Below are positions 5,101 to 41,047 of a stretch of DNA of 47,335 nt, piece after piece. Position numbers and translations under genes: made by a program. Each line of letters opens with the position of its first letter. The stretch's first letter is position 1. This stretch comes from Hydrurus foetidus. Taxonomy: Eukaryota. The notes beneath the pieces are model-generated. The model was not told where the DNA came from, ran no database searches, and worked only from the letters and a program-made list of their open reading frames with translations. The stretch covers positions 1-47,335 of the forward strand of contig UYFQ01000310.1 of NCBI GenBank assembly GCA_900617105.1. The letters run 5' to 3'.

Positions 5101-5940
5101 CTCTAACTACATCTTGTGCTGTTATGTCACTCTTATCTAATTTCCCCTGACCTATTAATTTAATTAACTGTCCTGGGCTGGCGTAACCTAACTTTCTCTG
5201 ATACTCTCTAGCTAACTCTGCTGACTTAACTTGTCTAGCTGTATACAGTTTCTTCTTATCCTTAACTGTCATGACCATGATCGATTTATCGAACGATACA
5301 TTCTTGTAACTGACATTTCTGTCTAAGTCGCATAGATATATGTTCGTAGACTGATCATGGACAAATCTATATACAGGTCCTAACTTAATCATCCTAACTT
5401 TGTAACAATCCTGGTCACTGTCATAGCTAACTGACTCGCTCGAGCTGACTATGTTACCGAAGGATAATATATTTGCTATACAATTGCTATCGTAGTAAAC
5501 TGTTCCGAAGTCCGTCTCGCCACACTCCGTGATTATCAAGGGTTCCCCTGAGGGTTCACTCCATTAATAATCATCGGGGTAGCGGACGGCATAATACTAT
5601 AAAATAAATCTCCACTACAAAATACTGACTCTGCTGCACATGTATCTAACAACACTTGTCTCTCTGTAAATGTGGAACTGTGTGTATATACATTCGCACT
5701 AAAAATCACAGGGTCACCCCCACAATTTTTACTGTTCAGTGGACAAAAATTCTCCAATCTGCATGCTTTATCTAACAATGGCACAAACGCAGGGTAACCG
5801 GTCGACGTTGCAAATACGTCATGCAGTCCGGTTTCCCCACACGGAACATTTACATCCTTAGCTAGTGAATCAGGTAAAGAAACATATAAGGGACTTACTT
5901 TTCCGAGGAAGGGTGACGCGCAGGTGCGTTCTTCCTCGGG
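2166..5940 (-). CDS. pol: Copia-1 pol (protease, integrase, RT, RNase H); split by single-base frameshifts at ~5540 and ~3705
   Basis: LLDTCAAES (PR); YIDLMF..IRIDGE..VERKIR (IN); KSRLVAGG, LKKALYG, IHVDDM (RT); YIDASYA, SSTEAELVA, YQDN, RTRHIDIK, ADLLTKPL (RH). Confidence 0.93.
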
Positions 5941-7075
5941 GCTTCTTACACTCGTACGCATAGTGGCCCTCCTCCCCGCAGTTGTTGCAGGCTCCGTAAC
6001 GGGTACCGTACTCCTGTACGGCACCACCTCTCTCTCTCTGCGGGGTGGCCTCCCTATCCCTATAGGGAGTGCCTGCCCTCGCTGTACTCTCGCTGCCGGG
6101 GGTATCGTACCCTCCCTTCTCAGCTCCCTGACTGCCTCCGCGGCCTCTGCCGCCTCTCCCACCGGAACCCGCTCTCCCACCCCGACTGGCCGCGAAAACG
6201 TTTCGCTTCTCCGAGTTCGGGGGAGCTCCTCCGTGGACGGGCCTTCCCATAAGGAAGTTGGCCGCGTCCTGGTTGGCATCACCCATGGTCTGCGGCCATG
6301 GGCGAACCTTATTTTTAAACGTATTAATATATTCTGAATAGTTTGAATTCAGTGCAGTTATAAATAAGACAGCATGGAACTCATCTGTGTGTTCTGGCGC
6401 TTCTTCGTCTGCCAACCTGTAGGCTTCGCTCTTGACAAATAGCAGAGTCCGGCACCTACTATAGTATGCTGCTAGATCTTCGTGTTGAGTCATTTTATTG
6501 TTATAAAAGTTTCTAACTGCTGTAATTATGTTATAGGTTTCTCCATACCTTTTGTTGTTCATGTGTGTTGCAACCACACATGTCAACAGACCTAGTGGAT
6601 CACATTCCTCCATAGCTCTCTTTCCAGCAGGCATCTCGTTCACCCTTGTGATCGAGGCCTCTGACATTTGACCTAATAATACACCATATAGTTTTGCACA
6701 ATCTTTTATAAGTAATTCATCAGCAGCATCGTATTTCTTACGTGCTGTTTTCCATCTCTCTATCGCGACTAGGCCTGCTCCCTCCGGCGGATCTTCAGGT
6801 TCCACCTGCTCCACGTAGTCGTACAGGATTCCGTCGATACCTATAATTTCTTTGATAGTAGATTCATAAGTACTGTACATATATACTCGAAAACATTCCA
6901 GCCATTTCAGCACAGATTCTGGATCTGCCGCTTGTCCTCGCGGCAAATCCAGGTAAGCACCTACCTCGGGCTTCCTACCTTTAGATATGGGTTTATGAGG
7001 CTCTCCTTGCCCTCTACCATATCGACCCCTGCCCCCGCCACGGGACTGGAATCTCCCATCGCCTCGTCCTCTCAT
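5870..7075 (-). CDS. gag: Copia-1 gag
   Basis: RGG-rich N-terminus starting MRGRGDG (ATG at 7075); zinc knuckle CNNCGEEGHYAYEC; homologous to the Copia-2 gag. Confidence 0.9.
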   Translation of the reverse strand: MRGRGDGRFQSRGGGRGRYGRGQGEPHKPISKGRKPEVGAYLDLPRGQAADPESVLKWLECFRVYMYSTYESTIKEIIGIDGILYDYVEQVEPEDPPEGAGLVAIERWKTARKKYDAADELLIKDCAKLYGVLLGQMSEASITRVNEMPAGKRAMEECDPLGLLTCVVATHMNNKRYGETYNIITAVRNFYNNKMTQHEDLAAYYSRCRTLLFVKSEAYRLADEEAPEHTDEFHAVLFITALNSNYSEYINTFKNKVRPWPQTMGDANQDAANFLMGRPVHGGAPPNSEKRNVFAASRGGRAGSGGRGGRGRGGSQGAEKGGYDTPGSESTARAGTPYRDREATPQRERGGAVQEYGTRYGACNNCGEEGHYAYECKKPRGRTHLRVTLPRKSKSLICFFT

Positions 7076-7119
7076 CCTTGCAAAGCTTTTGCAACTTCTA
7101 GCTAATCTATCTAAGGATG

Positions 7120-7130
7120 ACTGTCGTTTA
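7120..7130 (-). promoter_or_regulatory. Copia-1 primer-binding site, non-tRNA, complementary to its own LTR
   Basis: Sense TAAACGACAGT directly follows the 5' LTR; it is the exact complement of LTR sense ACTGTCGTTTA (7262-7252). Confidence 0.8.
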
Positions 7131-7409
7131 TGTTGGAAATCTGGGCGATTTACACGGAATTTCTTCCGAGTTCCCAAACGATCCCTGCACTTCCGACTGC
7201 TAGCAACGCTTGCTCAAAAGAGAAGAAGACGTTCTATTCGGTAAGTTGGATTAAACGACAGTGACATGCTGTCGATTACATCTAGCTAGCATAACATGAG
7301 TGCGAGGGTTGCGGTCAATGCTATCGCTGAATGTACGTACACCCGTGCATGAAAACAATCATACATCACGCAGGGTACATGATCCTAGTCTAATCCGGAT
7401 ATCACAACA
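7131..7409 (-). repeat. Copia-1 5' LTR (279 bp)
   Basis: TGTTG...CAACA inverted termini; identical to 1379-1656. Confidence 0.97.
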
Positions 7410-7592
7410 TTCGTACACACATATATTTCCCCATTTTCATCGTCATTCCGCAGGGAATCTTGGAAACTTGCGTCTTGCTTTCAAATCCACCAGAGGATGG
7501 ATTAACTGCACTTGCTCAGAATTTATATCACATAGTCTGTAATAGTAACAAATCAACGTTGCTGAAGAAATCAACGAAAGTAGTCCAGCACC

Positions 7593-10500
7593 ATGAAGCA
7601 AGCCGACCTTCTCTGGCTTCTATTCCTCACTGGCGTAGCAGCCATCAAAACAAATGAAGCCGATCTCGGAAAAGAAACGATGCGAACATATCAGCCCACA
7701 GTTGAACACACACCCCTTCCAAGAGTGGAGATCACTTTCACCCCAGTATTTATAGAAAATGATTTACCTACGGCTCTTCCGACTGAAGATCCAACAGCAA
7801 AGCCAACTTACCAGCCAACGCCCTCACCAACATACCAGCCAACAGCCGTGCCAACAGCGAAGCCAACACCTTCACCAACGTACCAGCCAACAGCCGTGCC
7901 AACAGCGAAGCCAACACCTTCACCAACGCACCAGCCAACAGCCATGCCAACAGCGGAGCCAACACCTTCACCAACGTACCAGCCAACAGCCTTGCCAACA
8001 GCGAAGCCAACACCTTCACCAACGTACCAGCCAACACCTTCACCAACATTTGTGCCGTCACCTTCACCATCTTTGGTTCCTTCGGTCCTAGCTTCCCCAA
8101 CTCTTTGTCCTACGGGAGCTCCTTATGCTCATGGACGCACTTATAAACCGACGGAAAGTCAAGAGTGTTTCAAACCGACGAAAAGTCCAGTCAGCAAAAA
8201 GCCAACATACAGTCCAACCAAAAAAAATCCTCCTACCCGTCGACCATCTACCCCAAAACCCTCTAAAGCCCCGAAGACGCCTAAGCCATCAACGGGAATG
8301 CCAATATGTCCGCTCTCACAGCCAACACAGTCACCAAGTGTCGATTCTTCTCCACCATTCCCAAACAAGTTCACACCAAGCCCTTTCTCCGTACAGCCAT
8401 CACCTGAACCAACACCTTCACCAACGCACCAGCCAACAGCCGTGCCAACAGCGGAGCCAACACCTTCACCAACGAACCAGCCAACAGCCGTGCCAACAGC
8501 GAAGCCAACACCTTCACCAACGTACCAACCAACAGCCGTGCCAACAGCGAAGCCAACACCTTCACCAACGCACCAGCCAACAGCCGTGCCAACAGCGGCC
8601 AACAGCCAACACCTTCACCAACGTACCAGCCAACAGCCGTGCCAACAGCGAAGCCAACACCTTCACCAACGCACCAGCCAACAGCCGTGCCAACAGCGGA
8701 GCCAACACCTTCACCAACGTACCAGCCAACAGCCGTGCCAACAGCGGAGCCAACACCTTCACCAACGCACCAGCCAACAGCCGTGCCAACAGCGGAGCCA
8801 ACACCTTCACCAACGTACCAGCCAACAGCCGTGCCAACAGCGAAGCCAACACCTTCACCAACGTACCAGCCAACAGCCGTGCCAACAGCGGGGCCAACAC
8901 CTTCACCAACGTACCAGCCAACAGCCGTGCCAACAGCGGAGCCAACACCTTCACCAACGTACCAGCCAACAGCCGTGCCAACAGCGAAGCCAACACCTTC
9001 ACCAACGCACCAGCCAACAGCCGTGCCAACAGCGGAGCCAACACCTTCACCAACGTACCAGCCAACAGCCGCCAACAGCGGAAGCCAACACCTTCACCAA
9101 CGTACCAGCCAACAGCCGTGCCAACAGCGGGGCCAACACCTTCACCAACGCACCAGCCAACAGCCATGCCAACAGCGGAGCCAACACCTTCACCAACGTA
9201 CCAGCCAACAGCCGTGCCAACAGCGGAGCCAACACCTTCACCAACGCACCAGCCAACAGCCGTGCCAACAGCAGCCAACACCTTCACCAACGTACCAGCC
9301 AACAGCCGTGCCAACAGCGGAGCCAACACCTTCACCAACGTACCAGCCAACAGCCGTGCCAACAGCGGAGCCAACACCTTCACCAACGTACCAGCCAACA
9401 GCCGTGCCAACAGCGGAGCCAACACCTTCACCAACGTACCAGCCAACAGCCGTGCCAACAGCGGAGCCAACACCTTCACCAACGTACCAGCCAACAGCCG
9501 TGCCAACAGCGAAGCCAACACCTTCACCAACGTACCAGCCAACAGCCGTGCCAACAGCAAGCCAACACCTTCACCAACGTACCAGCCAACAGCCGTGCCA
9601 ACAGCGGAGCCAACACCTTCACCAACGTACCAGCCAACAGCCGTGCCAACAGCTAGCCAACAGCGGACCAACACCTTCACCAACGCCAGCCAACAGCCGT
9701 GCCAACAGCGGAGCCAACACCTTCACCAACGCACCAGCCAACAGCCGTGCCAACAGCGGAGCCAACACCTTCACCAACGTACCAGCCAACAGCCGTGCCA
9801 ACAGCGAAGCCAACACCTTCACCAACGTACCAGCCAACAGCCATGCCAACAGCGGAGCCAACACCTTCACCAACGTACCAGCCAACAGCCGTGCCAACAG
9901 CGGAGCCAACACCTTCACCAACGTACCAGCCAACAGCCGTGCCAACAGCGAAGCCAACACCTTCACCAACGTACCAGCCAACAGCCGTGCCAACAGCGGA
10001 GCCAACACCTTCACCAACGTACCAGCCAACAGCCGTGCCAACAGCGAAGCCAACACCTTCACCAACGCACAAGCCAACAGCCGGGCCAACACCAATGCCA
10101 ACAGTGGAGCCAACACCTTCACCAACGTACCAGCCAACAGCCGTGCCAACAGCGAAGCCAACACCTTCACCAACGTACCAGCCAACAGCCGTGCCAACAG
10201 CGAAGCCAACACCTTCACCAACGTACCACCAACAGCCATGCCAGCAGCTGCCAACAGCGGAGCCAACACCTTCACCAACGCACCAGCCAACAGCCGTGCC
10301 AACAGCGGAGCCAACACCTTCACCAACGTACCAGCCAACAGCCGTGCCAACAGCGGAGCCAACACCTTCACCAACGTACCAGCCAACAGCCGTGCCAACA
10401 GCGAAGCCAACACCTTCACCAACGCACCAGCCAACAGCCGTGCCAACAGCGGAGCCAACACCTTCACCAACGTACCAGCCAACAGCCGTGCCAACAGCGG

Positions 10501-13500
10501 AGCCAACACCTTCACCAACGTACCAGCCAACAGCCGTGCCAACAGCGAAGCCAACACCTTCACCAACGTACCAGCCAACAGCCGTGCCAACAGCGGAGCC
10601 AACACCTTCACCAACGTACCAGCCAACAGCCGTGCCAACAGCGGAGCCAACACCTTCACCAACGTACCAGCCAACAGCCGTGCCAACACCTTCACCAACG
10701 TACCAGCCAACAGCCGTGCCAACAGCGGAGCCAACACCTTCACCAACGCACCAGCCAACAGCCGTGCCAACACCTTCACCAACGCACCAGCCAACAGCCG
10801 TGCCAACAGCGGAGCCAACACCTTCACCAACGTACAGCCAACAGCCGTGCCAACAGCGGAGCCAACACCTTCACCAACGCACCAGCCAACAGCCGTGCCA
10901 ACAGCGGCCAACACCTTCACCAACGTACCAGCCAACAGCCGTGCCAACAGCGGGCCAACACCTTCACCAACGTACCAGCCAACAGCCGTGCCAACAGCGG
11001 AGCCAACACCTTCACCAACGTACCAGCCAACAGCCGTGCCAACAGCGGAGCCAACACCTTCACCAACGTACCAGCCAACAGCCGTGCCAACAGCGGACCA
11101 ACGTAGCACCGACACCATCACCAACGTACCAGCCAACAGCCGTGCCAACAGCGAGCCAACACCTTCACCAACGCACCAGCCAACAGCCGTGCCAACAGCG
11201 GAGCCAACACCTTCACCAACGTACCAGCCAACAGCCGTGCCAACAGCGGAGCCAACACCTTCACCAACGTACCAGCCAACAGCCGCACCAACACCTTCAC
11301 CAACGTACCAGCCAACAGCCGTGCCAACACCTTCACCAACGCACCAGCCAACAGCCGTGCCAACAGCGGAGCCAACACCTTCACCAACGTACCAGCCAAC
11401 AGCCGTGCCAACAGCGGAGCCACCTTCACCAACGTACCAGCCAACAGCCGTGCCAACAGCGGCCAACACCTTCACCAACGTACCAGCCAACAGCCGTGCC
11501 AACAGCGGACCAACACCAGCCAACACCCAACACCTTCACCAACGTACCAGCCAACAGCCAGCCAACACCTTCACCAACGTACCAGCCAACAGCCGTGCCA
11601 ACAGCGGAGCCAACACCTTCACCAACGTACCAGCCAACAGCCGTGCCAACAGCGGAGCCAACACCTTCACCAACGTACCAGCCAACAGCCGTGCCAACAG
11701 CGGAGCCAACACCTTCACCAACAGCCGTGCCAACAGCGGAGCCAACACCTTCACCAACAGCGGAGCCAACACCTTCACCAACGACCAGCCAACAGCTGAG
11801 CCAACACCTTCACCAACGTACCAGCCAACAGCCGTGCCAACAGCGGAGCCAACACCTTCACCAACGTACCAGCCAACAGCCGTGCCAACAGCGGTTCACC
11901 AACACCAGCCAACAGCGTAGCCAACACCTTCACCAACGCCCAGCCAACAGCCGTGCCAACACCTTCACCAACGCACCAGCCAACAGCCGTGCCAACAGCG
12001 AGCCAACACCTTCACCAACGTACCAGCCAACAGCTTCACCAACGTACCAGCCAACAGCGGAGCCAACACCTTCACCAACGTACCAGCCAACAGCCGTGCA
12101 ACAGCGGAGCCAACACCTTCACCAACGCACCAGCCAACAGCGTGCCAACAGCTGAGCCAACACCTTCACCAACGCACCAGCCAACAGCCGTGCCAACAGC
12201 GGAGCCAACACCTTCACCAACGCACCAGCCAACAGCCGTGCCAACAGCGGAGCCAACACCTTCACCAACGTACCAGCCAACAGCCGTGCCAACAGCGAAG
12301 CCAACACCTTCACCAACGTACCAGCCAACAGCCGTGCCAACAGCGGAGCCAACACCTTCACCAACGTACCAGCCAACAGCCGTGCCAACAGCGGAGCCAA
12401 CACCTTCACCAACGCACCAGCCAACAGCCGTGCCAACAGCGGAGCCAACACCTTCACCAACGTACCAGCCAACAGCGAGCCAACACCTTCACCAACGCAG
12501 CCAACAGCCTTGCCAACAGCGGAGCCAACAGCGGAGCCAACACCTTCACCAACGCCAACAGCGAAGCCAACACCTTCACCAACGTACCAGCCAACAGCCG
12601 TGCCAACAGCGAAGCCAACACCTTCACCAACGTACCAGCCAACAGCCGTGCCAACAGCGGAGCCAACACCTTCACCAACGTACCAGCCAACAGCGAAGCC
12701 AACACCTTCACCAACGCACTTGCCAACAGCCGTGCCAACAGCTGCCCCAACACCTTCACCAACGCACCAGCCAACAGCCGTGCCAACAGCGGAGCCAACA
12801 CCTTCACCAACGCACCAGCCAACAGCCGTGCCAACAGCGGAGCCAACACCTTCACCAACGTACCAGCCAACAGCGTGCCAACACCGGAGCAACAACTTCA
12901 CCACCACCACCAACAGCCGTGCCAACAGCGGAGCCAACACCTTCACCAACGCACCAGCCAACAGCCGTGCCAACAGCGGAGCCAACACCTTCACCAACGT
13001 ACCAGCCAACAGCCGTGCCAACAGCGAAGCCAACACCTTCACCAACGTACCAGCCAACAGCCGTGCCAACAGCGGAGCCAACACCTTCACCAACGTACCA
13101 GCCAACAGCTGCCAACCAACCAACCTTCACCAACGCACCAGCCAACAGCCGTGCCAACAGCGGAGCCAACACCTTCACCAACGTACCAGCCAACAGCCGT
13201 GCCAACAGCGGAGCCAACACCTTCACCAACGTACCAGCCAACAGCGAAGCCAACACCTTCACCAACGTACCAGCCAACAGCCGTGCCAACAGCGGAGCCA
13301 ACACCTTCACCAACGCACCAGCCAACAGCCGTGCCAACAGCGGAGCCAACACCTTCACCAACGTACCAGCCAACAGCCGTGCCAACAGCGGAGCCAACAC
13401 CTTCACCAACGTACCAGCCAACAGCCGTGCCAACAGCGAAGCCAACACCTTCACCAACGTACAAGCCAACAGCTGCCCCAACACCTTCACCAACGTACCA

Positions 13501-13997
13501 GCCAACAGCCGTGCCAACAGCTGAGCCAACACCTTCACCAACGTACCAGCCAACAGCGAAGCCAACACCTTCACCAACGCACTCGCCAACAGCCGTGCCA
13601 ACAGCGGAGCCAACACCTTCACCAACGCACCAGCCAACAGCGAAGCCAACACCTTCACCAACGTACCAGCCAACAGCCGTGCCAACAGCGAAGCCAACAC
13701 CTTCACCAACGCACTCGCCAACAGCCGTGCCAACAGCGGAGCCAACACCTTCACCAACGCACCAGCCAACAGCGAAGCCAACACCTTCACCAACGTACCA
13801 GCCAACAGCCGTGCCAACAGCGAAGCCAACACCTTCACCAACGTACCAGCCAACAGCTGCCCCAACACCTTCACCAACGTACCAGCCAACAGCCGTGCCA
13901 ACAGCTGAGCCAACACCTTCACCAACGTACCAGCCAACAGCCGTGCCAACAGCGGAGCCAACACCTTCACCAACGCACCAGCCAACAGCGAAGCCAA
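7593..13997 (+). CDS. Secreted mucin-like Pro/Thr-rich cell-surface protein, 3'-truncated by a Gypsy LTR; many frameshifts within the array
   Basis: Signal-peptide-like [17 protein letters not shown]; Lys/Pro/Ser unique segment with Cys residues; long [16 protein letters not shown] repeat that hops between reading frames; the LTR TG begins at 13998. Confidence 0.85.
7791..8048 (+). repeat. First block of the 48-bp coding tandem repeat
   Basis: ccaacaccttcaccaacg(t/c)accagccaacagccgtgccaacagcg(g/a)ag units. Confidence 0.9.
8409..13997 (+). repeat. Main 48-bp tandem array (~5.6 kb, >100 units, with 36-bp deletion variants)
   Basis: Unit encodes PTPSPT(Y/H)QPTA(V/M)PTA(E/K); built from 12-bp ccaac sub-repeats. 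Confidence 0.97.
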
Positions 13998-14270
13998 TGT
14001 AGCCTAGCACGTACGTTCACCGTACACTTTATATACGTTTGTATATATTCACGTATGTATATAATTCACGCACCCATAGTCTATTTTCATCCACATCAAC
14101 TGTCCACCGGTAACGGACGCTCATCAGCATCAGCACCCTTGTAGCCTATCGTTTGTGTCTGTTGTTAGCTGCTTGCTCGCTTCTTTCACAAACTGTAACT
14201 AACCTAACAGTTTACTCCAGCATACCGTCTTTACCCGGATTCTTCGTACTCGAATCCGGCCGCGACTACA
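13998..14270 (+). repeat. Gypsy-1 5' LTR
   Basis: TGTAG...CTACA; homologous to 19908-20181. Confidence 0.95.
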
Positions 14271-14371
14271 ATATTAATATTGAGAGTTGTTAGACGAACT
14301 CTCGTTACTGGAGAGCTAGATAGATTTTCCAACTGCCGACATCCGACGACCATCTGGCACTGATCACCAGT

Positions 14372-21436: not shown

Positions 21437-22168
21437 ATTTGGTGGCGTTGAATGACTTGCTGACAAACGTGATTGGTTGTTATAGTCTACGCTATACATC
21501 ACACACATGTATGTACAGCCACGCCGCACGCTGCATGTACCCACTAGTTTTCCGTACCAGTTTTTAGGTTTCTGGAGCTTTGACAACTTCAACATGCGAT
21601 GAACTTTCCATTGATTATCTCATCCTCCTTCCATTTCTTTATCTCTTTACTTCAAGTAAAAAGACCGTTTTCTTACCAAAACACTTACCGACTTCGGGCT
21701 CTTTGAGTCTGATCCCTTTCTTTTTTGGCCCTTTTGCCAGCTTGTCAACTGATCAGCCCTTTTGCGGATCCGTAGCACAGCATGAAACTCGTTTTCTCGT
21801 TCTCTACAAAGTCGACAAGTCTGTCCTTTGATCCTTCTCGTTGAAGCACCTTTTGAACGCCGACAAGCAGTGAAAGCCTCGGCACAGTGGAAGCTTTCAA
21901 CAAGAAGGGTAAGCTCAAAGATCATCTCGGTAGATTTGCTCCCTAGAACAACTCTACATTTTTCTCTCGTCTCCGCGTCAACTCCTATATGTCAACATCT
22001 AAGAACCCGCGCGGCAAGAAGACGTCGCTTCCAGATCCTGCACCTCCAGGAACAAGGGAAGCCGATTCTGAAGCAGCGATACCAGATCCTGATGAATCAA
22101 TCATGGATCCTGTTGGCGAGCTCCGCCAAATGTTTGACCAGCTTATCCTCGCTACATCAGCCCAGGGC

Positions 22169-22598
22169 TGTAGCCTTATTGCATTCCTAAGGGGATACAA
22201 TGTGTCTAGGTTAACTAGGTACAATAGGTATATTATACGCCCAGATTCCACTTTTAGGTCTTAGTTCCACATATGATGTAAATGCACTTTAGCGTACACA
22301 TCACTTGTATATACTCAACTGTAAGATACTAACACAAGTCTATTCCACCGACTCTCGCTTCCCTTGCCCGCCGCTTGCACCAACCAGCCACCAACATCAG
22401 CTCCAACGTCCTAGGCCCCGCCCCAGACCACAATATCGATATTCGGTCGATACCGAAGCCTTTTTTCGTGAGAAGTTCGTTTCTCCGCTCCATCAACTTT
22501 AAATCCATCACCTATTTCCGACAGTCGAAGACAATGGCTCTCCGACGCCAAGACAAGAGGATTAGCACCATCAACTCCCTTCGCCGACAACGACAGCC
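22169..22598 (+). mobile_element. Extra Gypsy-2-family LTR (22169-22432) plus leader and first gag codons, truncated by the next LTR
   Basis: TGTAGCC...ACCACA LTR, AATATCGATATT, then MALRRQDKRISTINSLRRQRQP, homologous to the Gypsy-2 gag start. Confidence 0.88.
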
Positions 22599-22983
22599 TG
22601 TAGCCTTATTGCATTCCTAAGGGAATACAATGTGTCTAGGTTAACTAGGTACAATAGGTATATTACGCTCAGATTCCACTTTTAGGTCTTAGTTCCACAT
22701 ATGACGTGAATGCACTTAGCGTACACATCACTTGTATATACTCAACTGTAAGATACTAACACAAGTCTATTCCATCGACTCTCGACTTTGCCTTCGTTTG
22801 CCCACGCCTTCCGTCCTCCGCTTTCCGTCCTCCGCTTTCTCCAACTTCGCCTCCCGTCCTAGGCCCCGCCGTCAGACCACAATATCGATATTCGGTCTTC
22901 ACCGAAGTTTCCTCCGAGAAAGTTTTTCTCTTTTCCGACTTTTTGTCTTCGACTCCTCCAACTTAAACCATCACGTCAAAGTT

Positions 22984-25900
22984 ATGGCTCTACGCCGCCA
23001 AGACAAAAAGACATCCTCCATCAACGCCCTTCGGCGAAAGCAGCAACCTCGTGCTGTAGCCGTCGCGTTCCGACAACGCTATGACGACCATCACAATCGT
23101 AGTGGAGACGCAGAGTCTCCTGGGCCACCTGCGGCTCAGGACCCCGCCGGCGACCTGTCTGCACCGATTCCTCAGCGGAATTCGGAGCCTGCGGTCATGT
23201 CTGTCATTGATATTCCTGTCATTTCGGCGTTATCTGCTTTGTCATTGCAACCAGCTTCGGCTGGACACCAGCTTCGGCTGTGATACCAGCTTCGGCTGCG
23301 ATACCAGATTCAAATGCGACACCAGCTATTGCTGAGAATCCTATTCCAAGGACGATGGCACCACCCCAGCAATATGTGCAGACGGGTGAGAGAGCTCCTA
23401 AGTTGAGCGCCGTGCCCTCTCGTCAGGAAGTACTACGGGTAATGGAGGTCCTCCTTTCAAATGGAACTCCATTTAAACCAGTTGACGTAGTCCATGTTTC
23501 CAACCATCAATCGTTTACAACGCTTCTCAAGCGTAAGTTTGCAACTGATCCCGATCGTCGCGACTCCTGTAACAATTGGAAACATTGGTCGAATCAATTG
23601 TTCTGTAGAGAACTCAATCTCACAGTTCCTACATCAGCTGTCAATCGAACTGACAAGCTGAGTTTCATTGAAACTGTCTCTCAGGTCGCACTTCAATTCG
23701 ACCTGAAGGATAAATCAGTGGAAGACAAGACAGATCAGCTTTTAGCTGATATTGTTGATGGATTCCCTGATGCAACACCCGCTCTCCAACTTCAGGCAAC
23801 CAAAATTCTCATCGATAAGTTGCCTGTCGAACCTATCAATTGGAGAGCAGTGTTACAGCGTAGTCTTAACAATACAACGCCAAGACTCATTACAATCGAA
23901 GACTTTCGATTCGTATGGCTTGCGCAGCTTGCTAAGCTACGAGAATCAATTGATGCCTTACGGTTCATTGATGTCTCTCCTTTGTATGGTGATCACTCTC
24001 GCCAAATCAAAGCTCCTCCTCGTTCCTCTCAGGACAAAATCAAAAAACGTCCACGAGAGAGCGAACAATCAGTGCAATCAGACAAGTCTGACAAATTCGA
24101 AAGACCTCTGTGCACAGGTTGTGGGAGACTTGGCCATTTCGTCGCCACGTGTTTCTACACTACGTCTCCGTACTATAACAGTACAGACGCACCCTATATC
24201 AACTCTGAGGGTCATAAGCAGTTGTTGAAAGTCGATTCAAAGGCTAAGTTTATTCCAACTTTACCTAAGACATCGACCTCTTCTTCATCGTCTTCCTCTT
24301 CTTCTTCCTCTTCGTCAAAACCTGCTACTTCAACAGCAGACTCGACAAACGCTGCGAAGAAACACAAAGGTGAGCAACTATGCAACCTAAATTCATCATC
24401 TATTCTTTCCGATGATCCAGAACTTATTCCTTTCTTCGTATCTCCCCTCTCACAGGAGGTTATGCTGGAAAAAAGTAATAGAGTCTTTACTCTCCTGGAC
24501 ACCGGCTCTTTTGCTGGCAACTTTATACATCGCCGCATTATAACTAATCATAATTTCACACAATTCGTTTCTAACTCTTCAAAGAAATTGTGTAAAGTTT
24601 GTAGTGGATTAGATAATCATTGTTATGATATTTCTGACACTATAGACTTAACTCTTTCTTATTTTTGCCCTGATTTAAATAATTATTATACTTTTCAAAT
24701 CACGGCTTATGTTTTAAACGATTCGAAATTTGATCTAATAGTGGGACGAAAAACAATTCGCGAATTGAATTTATTTTCACGTTTCCCCGATCAAATATCT
24801 GCCAATGCTTCATCAAGCACTACCTCATTAGCGGAAGTTTTATCTTCTGAACAAGTGGATATAACGTGTGGCTGTCAGCCTAAGGAGAAGTTGCAACCCT
24901 CTGATGGCTCCCCAAAGGTCGATCCTTTAACCCAAAAGGTGAAACCGGCAGTAACCCAAACACACGTTATTCTAGCTTCACTAATACAAGAGTCTGAAAG
25001 ACTTTTTGAGGCTGTGCCCCCTGATGAGGACGAAATCGACGACTCGATCAAGGACTCGTTTTCACCTTGGATAGATGAATTTCCTGATACTGACCCACTC
25101 TCGCTAATAAACTTAGCAGGTGATGAAGATCAGAAAAATAAACTTCGGTTACTAGTACACGAATTCAAGGATATATTTAGCAGTGAACTTTCGGCCACTC
25201 CTGCTGATATTCCACCGTTTGACTTTCATGTCAATGACGACCAATGGAGAGTCCTAAAAATAGACAACCTCCATGGGCTAAATCAACAGTTGATCAAGCT
25301 GACATTCTCAGTCAAATTAAAAACTTGAAAAACAAAATATTGTTGAAAAATCAAACGCGGCTTATTATAGCCAAGTTTTACTAGTTCCAAAATCTGATGG
25401 AACTAAGCGCATGTGTATTGATTTTCGGAATCTCAACAATTGTACCGAAGATAAATCACATCCTATTCCACACATCGGTGAGATGTTGCGTAGAATAGGT
25501 GCACATAAAGCAAAAGTGTTTGCTGTACTTGACCTCACTCAAGGTTACCATCAAGCACCACTTACACTTGCTGCACGTGCTTATACTGCATTCATACTTT
25601 TCTGCGGAGTATATCAATTCACTCGTTTACCCTTTGGGCCAAAACAAGCACCCTCCTATTTCCAACAGATTATGACGACTGTTGTGTTAGCAGGGCTGAT
25701 ATACTCTATATGCGAAATGTACATAGATGATTGCAATGTTTTCGGTAAAGACATTGACGAACTCATTTCTAGACTTCGTCTTGTTTTTGAACGCTTTAGA
25801 AAACACAAAATATTCCTTAAACCGAATAAGTGTTATCTAGGCTATGCCGAAATAGATTATGTTGGCAAAGTTCTATCTGCAGATGGACTTAGAATGTCAC

Positions 25901-33079: not shown

Positions 33080-33565
33080 TATATACATGTACGTTATGCG
33101 GCACGTACGTACGTAAGTAAGTACGCATGCAGATATGATAACATGCAAACGTACACACGTACTTACACATGTTAGTGCATACTCATTTATGGATACGTAC
33201 ACACATGTACTTACACATGTACGTACATAGTCAATATGCACGTACGTACGTACGCACGCACGCACGCATGTAGCATAGCGTACACTTGTATGGTCACGCA
33301 CACACGTACATACGTACGTGCACATGTTAGTACAAATTACTATATGCATACGTACACACACGTACTTACACATGTATGTGCACATATAATATGTACGTAT
33401 GTACGATCGCCAATAGCGTAGTACATAGATGTATAGGCGTACATACGTAAGTACCACTGTACTTACGCATGTACGTTCTTACACATACACATGCATACGT
33501 ACTCCTATAATATCGCCATATAGCAGTTAGTACTCACACATGTACGTTCATATACATATACATGC
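33080..33565. repeat. Low-complexity alternating purine-pyrimidine tract (ACGT/TACA/CATG)
   Basis: Long runs such as cgtacgtacgtacgcacgcacgcacgcatgta. Confidence 0.85.
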
Positions 33566-34444
33566 AAACCCCTGTACTATCGCCATGTATCAGTTAGTAC
33601 GAACCCTCTGACCTCACGCAAATGAACGTTCGCCTTTGATGATTCTTCAGTATCGCCAAAACACTTTGTTACTATAAGCATTTATGCAACGTTCCTCAAG
33701 CACATGCTATGAGCAACACATCTCGCTGTGAACTTTGTCTCAAGGTAGTTTCACTGTCATGAACTGTTCTGATAGCTCTTTTGCGTGGCTATCTGCAAAC
33801 TTTAATCAGAATTTAATACGTTGTACTTCACAGCTTCATCTACTCGATAGCTCACTGAATTGAGACAGTAGCCTGCAGCTGCTTCTCCACCTTCGCTGCG
33901 AACGCTAGAAGGTGACATCTTGTATTTAGTCCTACAAGTAGATAATCGAATTTCAAAACGATTCCAGTAGTTTTCAGCGAGTGAATGTCAATATTCGTGA
34001 AGTTCTGTGTTCCTTAAAAACATGAAACCCGCTGGACGACTTTGAGCGGGGGATGGATGTGCTGACCATGCAAAGGGTGTCGGAATAACTGTGTGTTAAG
34101 TAACCGTATAAGTCATTACGTATGTACGCTTGATGACGTTGCACCGTCGTGTGCTGTGTGGGGGTCGCTACTCCACACGGTCCAAGTTCCTTTTAACCCA
34201 GGATCATCGAAAGCAACGAAAGTACACCATATTTGACTGTGTGGGACAGCGCGATCTTGTCGGCTGTCTCCATGAACAATGTAAGACACGTTGCATTGTT
34301 AATTACCTTTAACCTCACAAACAGCAGAACTTTCTCTTCGAGCCGAGTCAGTTGCTAGCTACATGTGCAGAAGTTGCAGAAGGAGAGCGTACGCTGGAAG
34401 ATCTAGTGCGACATTCAGTGAGACTGAAAGCCAACCGTACGACG

Positions 34445-34455
34445 TAATTAACAAT
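34445..34455 (+). promoter_or_regulatory. Copia-2 primer-binding site, non-tRNA, complementary to its own LTR
   Basis: TAATTAACAAT is the exact reverse complement of LTR 34295-34305 ATTGTTAATTA. Confidence 0.8.
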
Positions 34456-34478
34456 AGCTTTCGAACTTTCAACTTGCA

Positions 34479-37400
34479 ATGAAAGGCAGAGGCAGAGGCC
34501 GAGAGCACAATCCCGCAGGCGGTGGAGCAAACCCTGCCAATAGTGGCAGAGGGAATGCTGGCCGTGGTGCGATGCCTCCACCAAGAACAGGAACGGTAGC
34601 CGCGATCGCCGCATTCCTGGATCTTGGAAGAAAGATGAACCATGGTAGCGTAAGCGCATGGATGAGAAAGTTTCGCGAATACACACGTGCAAACTACAAG
34701 TCCGATATCTGCGAAATATTCGGCAATGAGGGCATACCGGGTACTTACCCGCAATGTATCGCTCCGGTAGACATACCTCTCGATGCTGGGTTTATGGTCG
34801 CTACCAAATGGAAGAGAGCACTAGAGCTCTACGACAAGCTAGTCCTGACACTAAGGGAAGACCGAAAACAAGTTTTCGGTCTCATGCTGGGACAGATTGG
34901 TGAGCAGTCAAAGTCGACAGTAAGAGAAACGAAATCCGGCATTACGGCTATGCTAGAGGAGGACCCGCTATTGCTACTCCGAGCAATCATTCTGACCCAC
35001 CTCTCAGACCCGAGACTAGGTGCGGATCAGAATTTGCTGAGAGTACGCATGGCGTATGAGACCGTGAGAATGGAGCCGAACGACGCGTTGAAATTCTACT
35101 ACCAGCGCTTCAAAGCGCTGAAGACTGGTTACGAGGACACCATGCATACCCTAGGGGTCATGCCGAATACAACGAGGCCATGACCGCCCACAACGAAATA
35201 CGTTGTGGATGAAGTTCATGAACGGGTTGAATTCGGGGTACCGTCATAATATAGAGTACTACGAGCACAGACTCAAAGACTGGCCAGAGGCTCTCGAGGA
35301 CGCGTACCTCGAGATGGCCAAGGTAACACCGAAGAAAGCAGCTGCTGCTGCAACACCACCCAACCAGACCAACATTTTCGCGACGAAAACGGCTGGAGGT
35401 GAGAAACCAGCGGAGAAAGGTAAAGTCAATCGGAACGGGGGCAGAGGGAAGGGTGGGCGTACGTCGTACGGCACCCGTCCCGGGAACTGTAATCGGTGTG
35501 GTGTAGCTGGATACTACTCTTATGAGTGCACGGCCAAGGATAGCCAAGCGGGTGCACAAGCACCGAGTGGAAAGTCGGTAAACCAACCGAGATACATTAT
35601 TCCTCACCTGTACACTCACCCACACCTACACCCGTACATACACCTGCACTTGCATTCCCACACACACTTATACATACACGCACCGATCCTCCATGTTTGG
35701 CTGATTCCACTAGCGGAATTGAAACATGTGATCATATTGTTTTTAGTGCTAATACATGTAATATATATAACACGATTAGAAGTAGACACATACTGCTTGA
35801 TACATGTGCTGGTGAGTCGGTATTCAACGACTCATCCCTGCTGCACAGTGTCGAACACGCACCCACACCCGGGATTGTTAGCGGGGTAAATCCGAATGGA
35901 AAACCGCTGAAATCAAGAAACGTGGGGTGTCGGCGTTCGGCAATGTGTATTATAGCGTTGACTGTGCTGGTAACATATTGTCTTCTGGTATCGCTCTACG
36001 TGACTGTACTGATGTTAAGTACTTACGTGACTATGATTGTTACATAGTGCAAGATGTCAGCGGAAAATATTTTTATATACACTCACGAGATGAAACTATG
36101 AATATATACCACTGCAATCTTGATACTATGGTAACAGAATGCACGCCAATGTTAGTTACGACAGTAGAACAGAACAAGAAATATTCAGTTAGAGAAGTCA
36201 GAGACACGTCGTTAGCTAGAGACTATCAGCGTAGATTAGGATACGCTAGCGCAGCACAGACTATTAAGTTGATATCCCAAGGGAATTTGACTAATAGCAA
36301 AGTGACTGCGCGAGACGTACATAGAGCCATTGATATATGGGGACCGGACGTGGGATCCCTTAAGGGGAAGACCACTAGTCACCAGGCCAAGTTAGAAGAG
36401 AAGTTACCATTGATAGGTATAGAGTACAAGACAGAACAAATCATGTACGTAGATATAATGTTCGTCAACCAGGTACCATATCTAGTATCAGTTGTTCAGC
36501 CTATCGAGTTCCTATACGTTAGCAAGTTAGCTAACAGAGAACACAAGAGCATATGGAACAGTTTAAAGACTTCATTAGCAAGCATGGTAAAGTACAGATT
36601 CAGAGTTAAAATGATCCGAGTAGATGGCGAGGGTGCAATTAACACAGAATGGTTTCATAACAAAGTCGGCTTAAGAGGTATAGTATTAGACGTTACCGGA
36701 GCCGGAGAAGCCGTAGCCGTAGTCGAGCGTAAGATACGACACATAAAGGAGAGAGTCAGATCAGTGATTAATTCTCTGCCATTCTCATTAAACGAGAAAT
36801 TAGAAGTGTGGTTAGTTAAGTATGCAGTCAGTAGAATTGTATTAGCTCCCACACGTAACTCACTTAACGACATCAGTCCGAGAGAAAAATTAACCGGAAG
36901 AAATTTAGACGTAGATAAGGAGATTAAACATGGTTTTGGTGATTATGTCCAAGTGCATAATGATGTCATTAATAAATCTACCAAACCAAGAACAGCCGGG
37001 GCCATAGCACTAATGAGCTCCGGTAACCTAGAAGGTTCATGGTACTATATGCTGTTAGCTAACGAACGTATTGTAAAACGTACTAAAGCGACTGTACTAC
37101 CTATGCCTGATGAAGTGATATTACACTTGAATGTACTAGCTTCAAAAAGAAATCTGCCAATGTTAAACAGCCTGTATTTGAGAATAGTAATCACACTGTA
37201 TTCGATGGTGACGACGATGTTGAAGATGATAGTGCGTACATTGGTGATGTCGAATATGAAACTGTCGATAAAAATGCTAACGCAAACTACACCGATGAGA
37301 TTATTGAAGATAACGATCACAATGACAACGACACATATCTTGAATCACAACTCGACATGTCTGATGAAAATCAATAACCCACATTAGATGAGTACGTAGA

Positions 37401-39565
37401 TGACACACTAGAGTGTTTGCGCATCTGAAATGAGACACGTATATGATGAGATGACACTACATACAGAATCTCTATAATTTCCAATGCGCAAACACTCTAC
37501 TATATGTGAATGACACTACATATGACAATGACGAACTGTAATATGATGACACACATGATGATACACATGTACTCACACCGAAATATGATCAAGCTCTGAT
37601 AGATGACATATTTGGTATAAGTGATGATGAAGATGACTTCGCTGATGTAACTGTACACCCTGAAGTATTCACCCCACCTGACACCATAATAGACACCGCA
37701 TATGACCCACCTGTTATTATTCACCCGTGCTGCGTAGAAGTGGTAGAAATCACCAACTTGGAAAATGGGATAAGAAATATGTTGGTAACCTGTTTTACAA
37801 TCACACTCACCTGTACAAAATGACTGTTAATGAAGGAATTAATAAGTTAGGGGTGATAGCTGTTGATTCCATCACATCTGAACTGAAACAAATGTGTGAT
37901 AAGAATGTTTGGGAAGGTGTAACTTATGAATCCCTCACCCCACAACAAAAACGCACCATCATACCTAGTAGCATGTTCTTAAAAGAAAAGTATACTGCTG
38001 ATGGTATGTTTGAAAAACTGAAATCTAGACTAGTAGCCGGTGGGCACTTACAAGATAGAGATGTTTACAATAATGGCGCCTCACCTACTGCCAGCACATC
38101 CAGTGTATTCATATTGACTGCAATTGCTGCTAGACAGAACCGCGCTGTTGCCACTGTTGATTTCCCCGGTGCATTCCTGAATAGTGATATGCCGCTGACC
38201 GTTGACCATGTTGTACACATGCGCTTGAATAAACAACTGACTGCTGCATTAATTAAAATTGATGCAACATACAATAAATACGTGAACAAGAATGGAACGT
38301 GTATTGTTAAACTTAAAAAGGCACTATATGAATGTGTAGAATCTGCTAAGCTGTGGTATGATAAACTATCCTGTGATTTGATTAAACTCAACTATACTGC
38401 TAATGAACATGACATCTGCGTATTCAATAGAACTGAATTAGATAACACACAAACATCACTCGTAATTCATGTTGACGATGTGATTATCACTGCCTCAAAC
38501 GAATCTCGTGTCGATGATGTTATTCAGCAAATCGAAACTATATACCCCGGCCTAACTAAACATCGCGGAAAAGTTTTAAATTACATAGGAATGACTTTCG
38601 ACTTCACTAAGGAAGGAAGCGTTAAGACGACTATGCAAGGATTCGTGCAAGACCTCATTGAGGGGTGTAAGGAAATGCCGGGCACGGCCAACACACCTGC
38701 ACAATCTAACCTATTCACTGTACCTGACGAATGCGACTCACTTTTACCTGATGACTTGTGTGAGCGTTTCCATTCTATTACAGCGAAGCTCCTCTACTTG
38801 AGCGAGTGGACGAGGCCAGACATCTTGACTGCCGTAGCGTTCTTGACCAAGAGAGTGATAAAGCCCCAAAGGGACGACTACAACAAGTTGATGCGTACGG
38901 TACAGTACATACGGGGTATCCAGAACTTGGGCGTGACATTTGAAGTGCATGAACCTATACATGTTATTGCATATATCGATGCATCCTTCGCCATACACCC
39001 CGATATGAAAAGCCACACAGGTTGCGTTATTGCCCTGGAAAAGGGAGCGATCTATGCCAAGAGCGGTACCCAGCGTCTGATGACGAAGTCAAGCACAGAG
39101 GCCGAGCTCGTAGCGCTTAGCGACTCAGCTAATCAAGTACTATGGACCCGCAATTTCCTACGTTGCCAAGGAGACCATCAACCACCCGCACTTATCCATC
39201 AGGACAACCAATCCACCATTCAGCTGATACGGAACGGACGTTCGAACAGCGAACGTACGCGCCATGTCGACATACGGTACTTTTTCCTACACGATAGGAT
39301 GAGCACCGGCGACATAGATATACAATACCTACCGACAAAAGTGATGATTGCCGACATACTAACCAAACCCCTACAAGGAAAACTATTCCGGAAGCTCAGG
39401 AAGGAGCTGATCAACCATCACCCCACCGTCACGTACGCAGCCAACTGCAAGCCTGAGGAACGTACGGACAACACCGTGACTTGCTCACGACCCAAATCCA
39501 ACCCCAACTTCCAATACCCTTCAAAACCTACTACCACCTACAAGAGCGGAATGAAGACCATCTGA
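34479..39565 (+). pseudogene. gag-pol: Copia-2 gag-pol with multiple frameshifts and stops
   Basis: MKGRGRG start; CNRCGVAGYYSYEC (knuckle His to Tyr); LLDTCAGES; IRVDGE; KSRLVAGG; IHVDDV; YIDASFA; ADILTKPL. Confidence 0.92.
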
Positions 39566-39863
39566 GACCCGACCGATTCACACCACCGAATCGATCACCC
39601 CTGTTGCCCCTGACATGACTGCTACACCCTACTGCTGCCCTGTCATATCTACTGCCTCTTCCCGTCCGATCTGCTACCCCCCGTCATTTCTGCTGCCTTT
39701 CCAACATTACTGCTGCCCATCCTTCTTTACCTGCTACCCAACCGCTGCGCGCATTAATTAGGAGACGTACGGACGGACGACACGGACTACACGTGCCTAC
39801 ACCCCACTGAGAGAGAACCCTGACTCACGGACCCTAGACTTAGAATCGGAAAAAAACCCACAC

Positions 39864-40001
39864 TGGAGCGAGAATTTGGAGCGAGAACATCATGGAGCGA
39901 GACATTGGAGCGAGAAACACCACGGAGCGAGAACTAAGGAGCGAGATTTAGGAGCGTGGATCCTGGAACTAGGACCCTGGACCGGAGTTAATGGAGCGAG
40001 G
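39864..40001 (+). repeat. Short GGAGCGAGA direct-repeat cluster in the Copia-2 3' UTR
   Basis: About 7-8 copies of ggagcgaga separated by 4-8 nt variable spacers. Confidence 0.8.
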
Positions 40002-41047
40002 ACTCTGGACTGGACCCTGGATCGGAATCTGGATTCGATCATCTTATTCAATCAGTTAGCTGAGAAGATTTTAATAGCATACTACTTTTTGACTATAAAA
40101 TCACTTTCGCATTGTTTAACTCTACTGCTCGTACGGGTCAGCCAGAACGTACGATACTAATATTGCCCTGTGTGTACTAACGTATCTACCTTCACCCTAA
40201 AGGTCAACCTCACCATTACCTTAACTCCCTACCCTAAAACATCATGTTGTGATACACGACTCCTAGTCAAAGGAGCAATTTTGAATTTTATCTTTGCGTT
40301 TTAATCATCCGCATAGCCCCTACCCGACGACTCACGCCATAGGGGTGTGTCGGAATAACTGTGTGATAAGTAACCGTATAAGTCATTACGTATATACGCT
40401 TGATGACGTTGCACCGTCGTGTGCTGTGTGGGGGTCGCTACTCCACACGGTCCAAGTTCCTTTTAACCCAGGATCATCGAAAGCAACGAAAGTACACCAT
40501 ATTTGACTGTGTGGGACAGCGCGATCTTGTCGGCTGTCTCCATGAACAATGTAAGACACGTTGCATTGTTAATTACCTTTAACCTCACAAACAGCAGAAC
40601 TTTCTCTTCGAGCCGAGTCAGTTGCTAGGTACATGTGCAGAAGTTGCAGAAGGAGAGCGTACGCAGGAAGATCTAGTGCGACATTCAGTGAGACTGAAAG
40701 CCAACTGTACGACAAAGGGTCCTGGGAACTCAAGGGTGTGTTTTTAATTGGTACCAGTGTCAAAAAGGCTGTACCTTTTTGTTCTGAGTCCTGTTCTTCT
40801 CTCAGGAACCGAGAAACTTGGAAACCGAGTAGAATCCATGCTCTCACCCTGTTTGTCTGTAACCCACAGAGGCGAGTCCAGAACGATCACAACTACTGCT
40901 GGTTGTTGCCGACAAACATATTTTATATATTAGTGTCGTATAGATGTTAATATATCGCACGAGGTTGGACTGTTGTGTGGTTGAGTATGGGTCCATGGAT
41001 AGAGTATGAGATAGACAAATTAAATATCTCTCACATCTCTACCCAGG

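Follow-up and report, generated by a model that had tools for sequence, protein, structure and literature searches.

A predicted U3 hairpin over the putative self-primer of two Copia retrotransposons and its uneven occurrence across an environmental Copia clade

Self-priming of reverse transcription by the 5' end of an element's own RNA means that the primer is present twice, once in each LTR, and how the second copy is prevented from interfering is not addressed in those parts of the literature that we found. Two Copia-type LTR retrotransposons in a 47,335-nucleotide stretch of Hydrurus foetidus contig UYFQ01000310.1 (hereafter the window) raise the question of whether the second copy is folded away by the LTR itself. 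The original prediction for this locus held that an upstream "anti-primer" arm, conserved in the LTRs of both elements, pairs with the start of the primer and folds away the second primer copy in the 3' LTR, which would provide a built-in switch between the 5' and 3' ends of the transcript. The observation of the arm is confirmed and its interpretation partly supported: on sequence grounds, we regard the arm as a real, optional hairpin at the U3/R border and not as a universal switch.

Both elements have an RVT_2-type reverse transcriptase (RT; RVT_2 E = 1.6e-20 and 4.3e-22), near-identical TG...CA LTRs and, in Copia-2, a target-site duplication, as expected of Ty1/copia elements. Copia-2 (34078-40714, plus strand) has a 367-bp 5' LTR (34078-34444) and a 3' LTR (40348-40714) with 98.6% identity to it; AAGGG flanks the 5' LTR and recurs after the 3' LTR as a 5-bp target-site duplication. 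Its gag-pol region (34458-39565, plus strand) is spread over several frames and has a weak zinc knuckle match in addition to RVT_2. Copia-1 (7409-1379, minus strand) has a 279-bp TG...CA 5' LTR (7131-7409) and a 3' LTR (1379-1656) that is identical over 278 bp and lacks the terminal A; its gag-pol region (2166-7213, minus strand), also in several frames, has zf-CCHC and RVT_2 matches, and a short target-site duplication was not found. Each element thus has one imperfect LTR end, the other being the CG at the end of the Copia-2 5' LTR, which is CA in its 3' LTR and in related contigs. Open reading frames upstream of the RT gave no Pfam integrase match at E<=0.01 in either element, the translation there being integrase-like by eye only, and neither an integrase downstream of RT-RH nor a Chromo domain match was found in either. 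Outside the Copia-1 LTRs lies a 380-bp direct repeat (98.7% identity; 999-1378 and 7410-7788) which, together with the missing terminal A, may reflect a large duplication via aberrant one-ended integration, or later recombination. A dispersed non-coding repeat is found near each Copia element, in inverted orientation and with 92.5% identity (310-536 and 33541-33763).

The window also contains two chromodomain Gypsy elements with perfect palindromes at the PBS position (14269-14282, 14 nt; 22881-22892, 12 nt), which overlap the LTR end. In the two Gypsy 5' LTRs scanned, no stretch of 8 nt complements the PBS position; these palindromic sites would represent neither tRNA nor Tf1-type priming, and recall the palindromic CHSeq1 of fungal GalEa. 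A Gypsy LTR and the start of its internal region are tandemly duplicated with 78% identity (22168-22587 and 22598-23037), and a ~6.5 kb array of 48-bp repeats (7600-14100), open in several frames, ends where a Gypsy LTR interrupts it at 13998.

The Copia elements have the layout of Tf1-type self-priming: the PBS, which is not of tRNA type, abuts the 5' LTR end, and its perfect complement lies inside the LTR. In Copia-2, the self-primer (34295-34305, plus strand; putative +1 to +11) is complementary at 11/11 positions to the PBS at 34445-34455, and in Copia-1 the self-primer (7262-7252, minus strand; likewise putative +1 to +11) is complementary at 11/11 positions to the PBS at 7130-7120. An 11-nt LTR/PBS complement would be expected by chance at ~1e-4 per LTR.

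The arm is encoded directly upstream of the primer. In Copia-2, the arm AACAATGTAA (34275-34284, plus strand) forms the 5' strand of a 10-bp stem, closed over a 6-nt loop (34285-34290) by TTGCATTGTT (34291-34300, plus strand), as had been predicted; the stem includes one G-U pair and has a predicted stability of -10.0 kcal/mol (z -3.59; none of 200 dinucleotide shuffles as good). The claim that this stem covers the primer start stands for the first six bases (34295-34300); its other four pairs involve bases -4 to -1, and the remaining five of the 11 primer bases are uncovered. In Copia-1, the arm TAATCGACAGC (7268-7278, minus strand, read 7278-7268) is the proposed PBS mimic, with 9/11 identity to the PBS, and is spaced by atgtc from the primer strand ACTGTCGTTTA (7262-7252, minus strand). 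Its nine pairs cover nine of the 11 primer bases at -8.0 kcal/mol (z -1.91; 11/200 shuffles as good), and an 81-nt segment around the hairpin folds no better than its shuffles (z 0.11). The 3' LTRs include the arm, as predicted, with arm and primer copies at 40545-40554 and 40565-40575 in Copia-2 (plus strand) and at 1525-1515 and 1509-1499 in Copia-1 (minus strand). To call the arm conserved in both elements was an overstatement: the LTR regions of Copia-1 and Copia-2 give no blastn match and the hairpin registers differ, so that we regard the two hairpins as analogous rather than as one conserved homologous hairpin.

Folding places a second hairpin directly 5' of the Copia-2 arm (34239-34273, plus strand), which is predicted to be stronger than the arm hairpin and to sequester bases that could act as competitors of the arm; a fold begun at -40 cuts this hairpin, and the Copia-2 arm is then mostly lost (0.24, p 0.33). 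Contigs of the Copia-2 family from four sequencing runs have, among the variants listed, a single stem variant, at 34278, where it is the majority letter and yields a G-U pair at a cost of 0.3 kcal/mol; the 6-nt loop has at least two variants.

Predicted folding of RNA with and without U3 agrees with the proposed behavior in Copia-2 and, in part, in Copia-1. RNA that begins at the primer and continues beyond the PBS is predicted to form 10.7 and 10.5 of the 11 primer:PBS pairs in the two elements, in line with the expectation that an arm-less RNA beginning at the primer would bind the PBS. Predicted primer:PBS pairing falls from 0.97 to 0.26 and from 0.95 to 0.04 once U3 is included. With the whole U3 added, the Copia-2 arm would fully replace the PBS (0.07 PBS versus 5.85 arm pairs), and the Copia-1 primer would be split between PBS and arm (5.0 versus 3.9 pairs), so that a U3-carrying RNA would fold the primer away completely in the former and only partly in the latter. 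In simulated 3' ends, the Copia-2 arm persists over all lengths tested (5.9-6.0 pairs). That of Copia-1 is predicted to be weak in RNA ending 20-60 nt past the primer (2.0-2.5 pairs), and to reach 7.2-7.7 pairs in longer RNA.

Whether the arm is general depends on relatives of the two elements. The RT-RH alignment comprised 74 sequences, namely the proteins of both window elements plus 72 of 120 matches, from which 65 metagenome loci and 21 genome-bin loci were obtained; the LTR region was examined in 52 of these 86 loci, the remainder being too short or stopping before the LTR. The RT tree is a quick tree of environmental rows only; named reference elements were absent from the RT matches, and no relative was found among viral contigs. 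In 43/52 loci, the sequence at the LTR end has a perfect complement of 9-22 nt within the LTR; five of the others were too short (L015, L062, and L078) or without a PBS side (L009 and L019), and a convincing LTR/PBS pair was not found in four (L010, L020, L037, and L085). Where there were several inverted repeats, the one at the CA end was picked by eye, and the PBS start was set at the edge of the perfect match in five loci. Removal of near-duplicates (L008, L016, L042, L068, and L080) left 38 families; the dinucleotide-shuffle tests and the test with folds begun at -40 cover 37 families, before L001 joined.

Across these 38 families and the two window elements, primers are 9-21 nt long, the PBS differs in all 40 elements and starts with TGG in none, and the distance from +1 to the PBS is 63-221 nt; the PBS is often within 45 nt of the gag ATG. 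Self-priming across this Copia clade is therefore, as far as sequence can indicate, well supported. Base -1 is C in 34/40 primers and base -2 is T in 31/40, but the primer definition itself required an A at +1 and a pyrimidine at -1; the pyrimidine-A context at the primer start is one that we take to be an initiator-like motif, and a transcription start at the first primer base is plausible. DNA similar to the window occurs in freshwater, biofilm, sediment, and air sequencing runs, with no RNA run among those listed, and the hosts of the clade are probably environmental microbial eukaryotes. Contigs of this clade also occur inside bacterial genome bins (L066-L086), most likely as eukaryotic contamination; one of these (L066) has 94% identity to the Copia-1 RT. 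Five of the genome bins from which such loci came gave no match to either LTR. In the LTR regions of two loci (L036 and L042), the primers are only 9 nt long and near-palindromic, a 42-nt block around the primer has 93% identity where the remaining LTR has diverged, and the PBS resembles GalEa CHSeq1. The long primers (17-19 nt) of two others (L006 and L032) are predicted to fold on themselves or on adjacent bases, a possible second route to masking.

Evidence that the arm extends beyond the window comes from a cross-family permutation in which each U3 (-35 to -6) was paired with each primer region of the 38 relatives, the window elements being excluded. Primer regions pair better with the U3 of their own family than with a foreign U3 (z -4.7, p 5e-5); the signal at the primer (z -4.66) compares with a span of -2.27 to +2.45 over 24 offsets beyond +-4 nt, and is retained with one row per tight clade (z -3.3 to -3.9; six random draws, 23 rows). 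The inverted match between U3 and primer is enriched (z +2.96), and the predicted opening energy of the primer is raised by its own U3 (z +3.1, versus -0.71 to +1.82 at 12 offsets beyond +-5). Dinucleotide shuffles give p<=0.05 in 8/37 families at the primer versus 33/542 tests at other offsets; in two further comparisons with shuffles (37 families), one of them with folds begun at -40, Fisher's combined p is 0.02 and 0.01. Among strong hairpins, the sense strand is the more stable in 12/13 cases versus 101/151 at control offsets. The masking gain is at least 2 kcal/mol in 10/38 relatives and at least 1 kcal/mol in 14/38; the enriched complementarity is carried by these 10-14 families, roughly a third of the total.

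Other results limit this generality. There is no masking gain from the family's own U3 in 18/38 relatives, so that for about half of the families the arm is not conserved, contrary to what a general switch would entail, and by opening energy the two window elements come no higher than 9th and 12th among the 40. With pairing restricted to the primer, bases -3 to -1 being excluded, z is -2.63, a size matched by one of five controls (+2.59); Copia-1 then ranks first and Copia-2 (-1.2 kcal/mol) ranks 12 of 40. Paired Wilcoxon tests against shuffles are not significant (p 0.24 and 0.12; 37 families), and at the control offset -75, 7/35 families pass the shuffle test. The antisense strand signal is nearly equal to that of the sense strand (z -4.0 versus -4.7), and DNA energies give z -5.5 and -4.6 (sense and antisense, respectively). 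Arms do not cluster on the RT tree (110/500 shuffles as low). All three of the sister families L043, L048, and L027 carry an arm, with a register that differs from one to the next; among sister families most LTR pairs are unalignable and the same helix is not kept; and in the window's own subclade an arm is predicted in two families (L002 and L024) and not in two others (L001 and L003). Primer masking by downstream sequence shows no enrichment (z -1.21). An origin as direct repeats via palindromic primers was ruled out, the direct match not being enriched (z -0.60).

The predicted outcome of the competition with the PBS is similarly divided. Without U3, the primer is predicted to be folded on the PBS at >=0.59 in 37/38 relatives. 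With 60 nt of their own U3, the PBS is predicted to keep at least half of the primer in 25/38, some of which have a strong arm (for example L038, L076, and L083), and primer:PBS pairing falls below 0.5 in the other 13, one of which is unpaired even without U3; shuffled U3 also disrupts the predicted pairing in several families. The arm as a general 5'/3' switch is thus not borne out among the relatives.

We consider masking of the 3' primer copy to be the likeliest role of the arm, a reading that we hold tentatively and at somewhat less than an even chance. By analogy with Tf1, the genomic RNA would have the first base of the primer as its start, so that its 5' end would be without the arm, and RNase H would cut after the paired bases and free the primer; the 3' end of the RNA would extend past the primer copy and carry arm and primer together. 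Given such a start and such an end, only the 3' copy would have the arm, and the hairpin would lower the odds of that copy taking the PBS, on the same or on a co-packaged RNA. The 5' primer, at 63-221 nt from the PBS, would pair with it co-transcriptionally, kilobases before the 3' copy exists. As the 5' primer can pair during transcription and about half of the families are without the arm, the benefit of masking is probably small; the lack of an arm in half of the families further means that it tunes priming and is not required, and that it carries less weight, as an accessory feature.

Several other explanations bear on the same data. The hairpin could instead act at the 5' end, blocking priming on upstream-started or read-through transcripts and perhaps leaving these as mRNA, which amounts to a fate switch that depends on the start site. 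In keeping with this, U3 addition is predicted to abolish primer:PBS pairing in both window elements and to lower it below one half in a third of the relatives, the PBS is often close to the gag ATG, and start-site choice sets the reverse-transcription competence of Tf2, where the portion of the source that we drew on places the alternative start downstream (PMC5341516); we nevertheless think it unlikely, since the PBS is still predicted to win with U3 in most relatives and shuffled U3 likewise disrupts the pairing in several families. Equally, the arms may be by-products of reverse transcription that confer no benefit, written as short inverted repeats at the U3/R border by fold-back template switches after the first strand transfer. 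Position specificity, the register differences between sisters, the patchy distribution, and the signal on both strands would all be accounted for by such an origin. Template switches would, however, leave Watson-Crick repeats without strand preference, whereas strong hairpins favor the sense strand 12:1 versus ~2:1 in the controls (a weak difference) and the common variant in the Copia-2 family is G-U compatible, and we judge this origin improbable. Chance local structure in short A+T-rich sequence in the two window elements, with the family signal due to composition or to a few rows, would fit the borderline status of Copia-1 (11/200 shuffles; p 0.096), the restriction of the Copia-2 arm to six of 11 primer bases, a primer-only test no stronger than one control, and the purine-rich U3 on a pyrimidine-rich primer in two families (L049 and L076) that fail the shuffle test. 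We nonetheless judge it unlikely, given a sharp peak at a position fixed beforehand (29 offsets) that is robust to pruning, and a z of -3.6 for Copia-2.

The location of the signal also admits roles other than masking. The hairpin could be under selection for a different task at the 3' end of the RNA, such as forming that end, stabilizing the RNA, or pacing the first strand transfer, which arrives beside the hairpin. The signal is strongest with bases -5 to -1 allowed (z -4.7 versus -2.6) and the opening energy peaks from -5 to +5, so that the hairpin is as much a mark of the U3/R border as of the primer; furthermore, the second, stronger hairpin of Copia-2 adjoins the arm, and TGTAA, which green algae use as a poly(A) signal, occurs inside both window arm regions. 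Upstream motifs are uncommon in the relatives (TGTAA within 40 nt in only 4/38, AATAAA in 2/38, and TATA in 6/38), the scarcity of TGTAA counting against a role at the 3' end, which we rate as quite unlikely. Least plausible, and in our view very improbable, is that the inverted repeat functions at the DNA level, as an element of the core promoter surrounding the transcription start: the repeat straddles the initiator-like motif and the signal persists with DNA energies, but the arm sequence differs in every family, which leaves no shared protein-binding motif, and only the sense strand tolerates G-T/G-U pairs.

If masking of the 3' copy is the role, the U3 arm is a concrete answer to the problem of the second primer. 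A broader proposal, slightly less probable than the masking role itself, is that LTR elements with self-priming, this large environmental Copia clade among them, have time and again evolved an anti-primer encoded in U3, which would cover the primer in any U3-carrying RNA. Were it true, only correctly started 5' ends would prime, and a cis-acting RNA switch would distinguish the identical LTR ends and co-vary with a fast-changing primer. The wide environmental Copia clade described here, with its family-specific self-primers of 9-21 nt, extends self-priming beyond Tf1/sushi elements and plant TAR. A published U3 arm over a self-primer was not found in our search, which did not extend to the primary Tf1 literature.

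Self-priming has been shown for Tf1, and predicted for Tf1/sushi elements, Tcn1, and the plant Copia lineage TAR, according to the portions of the sources consulted (PMC6317226, PMC4600332). In the part of the Tf1 account available to us, the RNA's 11 initial bases pair with the PBS and are removed by RNase H (PMC7175516). Around the primer:PBS helix, a Tf1/sushi comparison, available in part, describes a three-duplex "pretzel" (PMC10085805). In this clade such a structure is at most weakly supported: cross-family z values, which lack positional controls, are -2.07 for the duplex of PBS-downstream sequence with the LTR end, -2.59 for the LTR end with the preceding 60 nt, and +0.72 for the LTR end with post-primer sequence. 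The available portion of the source on CoDi elements yielded no PBS description (PMC2806351).

The 5' leader switch and the R-region hairpins of HIV-1 offer an analogy only: there too, identical LTR sequence folds according to the start position of the RNA, but HIV-1 is primed by a tRNA, and what its switch controls is whether the RNA is packaged or translated, as far as the excerpted source goes (PMC11331132). Like fungal GalEa, the window elements are Copia without a tRNA PBS and have a hairpin at the priming end, which in GalEa is conserved (PMC5445492, in the sections available). The GalEa CHS hairpin consists of two 9-nt sequences downstream of the 5' LTR, and, in the same sections, its authors found no LTR complement (PMC5445492); in the window elements, unlike GalEa, the complement is inside the LTR, an extra hairpin is at the U3/R border, and the CHS arrangement is not seen. 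For plant TAR elements (Ty1/copia; Houba and Osr-1), Copia self-priming is likewise predicted from LTR:PBS complementarity; TAR differs in its hosts, which here are probably environmental microbial eukaryotes, and the portion of the TAR source at hand does not mention an arm (PMC6317226). With Tf1 and Tf2 of Schizosaccharomyces pombe, and with Tf1/sushi elements generally, the window elements have in common a non-tRNA PBS that abuts the LTR and is matched by a perfectly complementary 11-nt stretch within it; a U3 arm is not mentioned in those parts of the Tf1/sushi literature that we found. Tf1/sushi elements are Ty3/gypsy chromoviruses, unlike the window elements, which are Copia with RVT_2 and no chromodomain integrase match, and whose clade differs further in having primers of 9-21 nt. 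Copia-1 and Copia-2 would work like Tf1, but are not members of the Tf1/sushi group.
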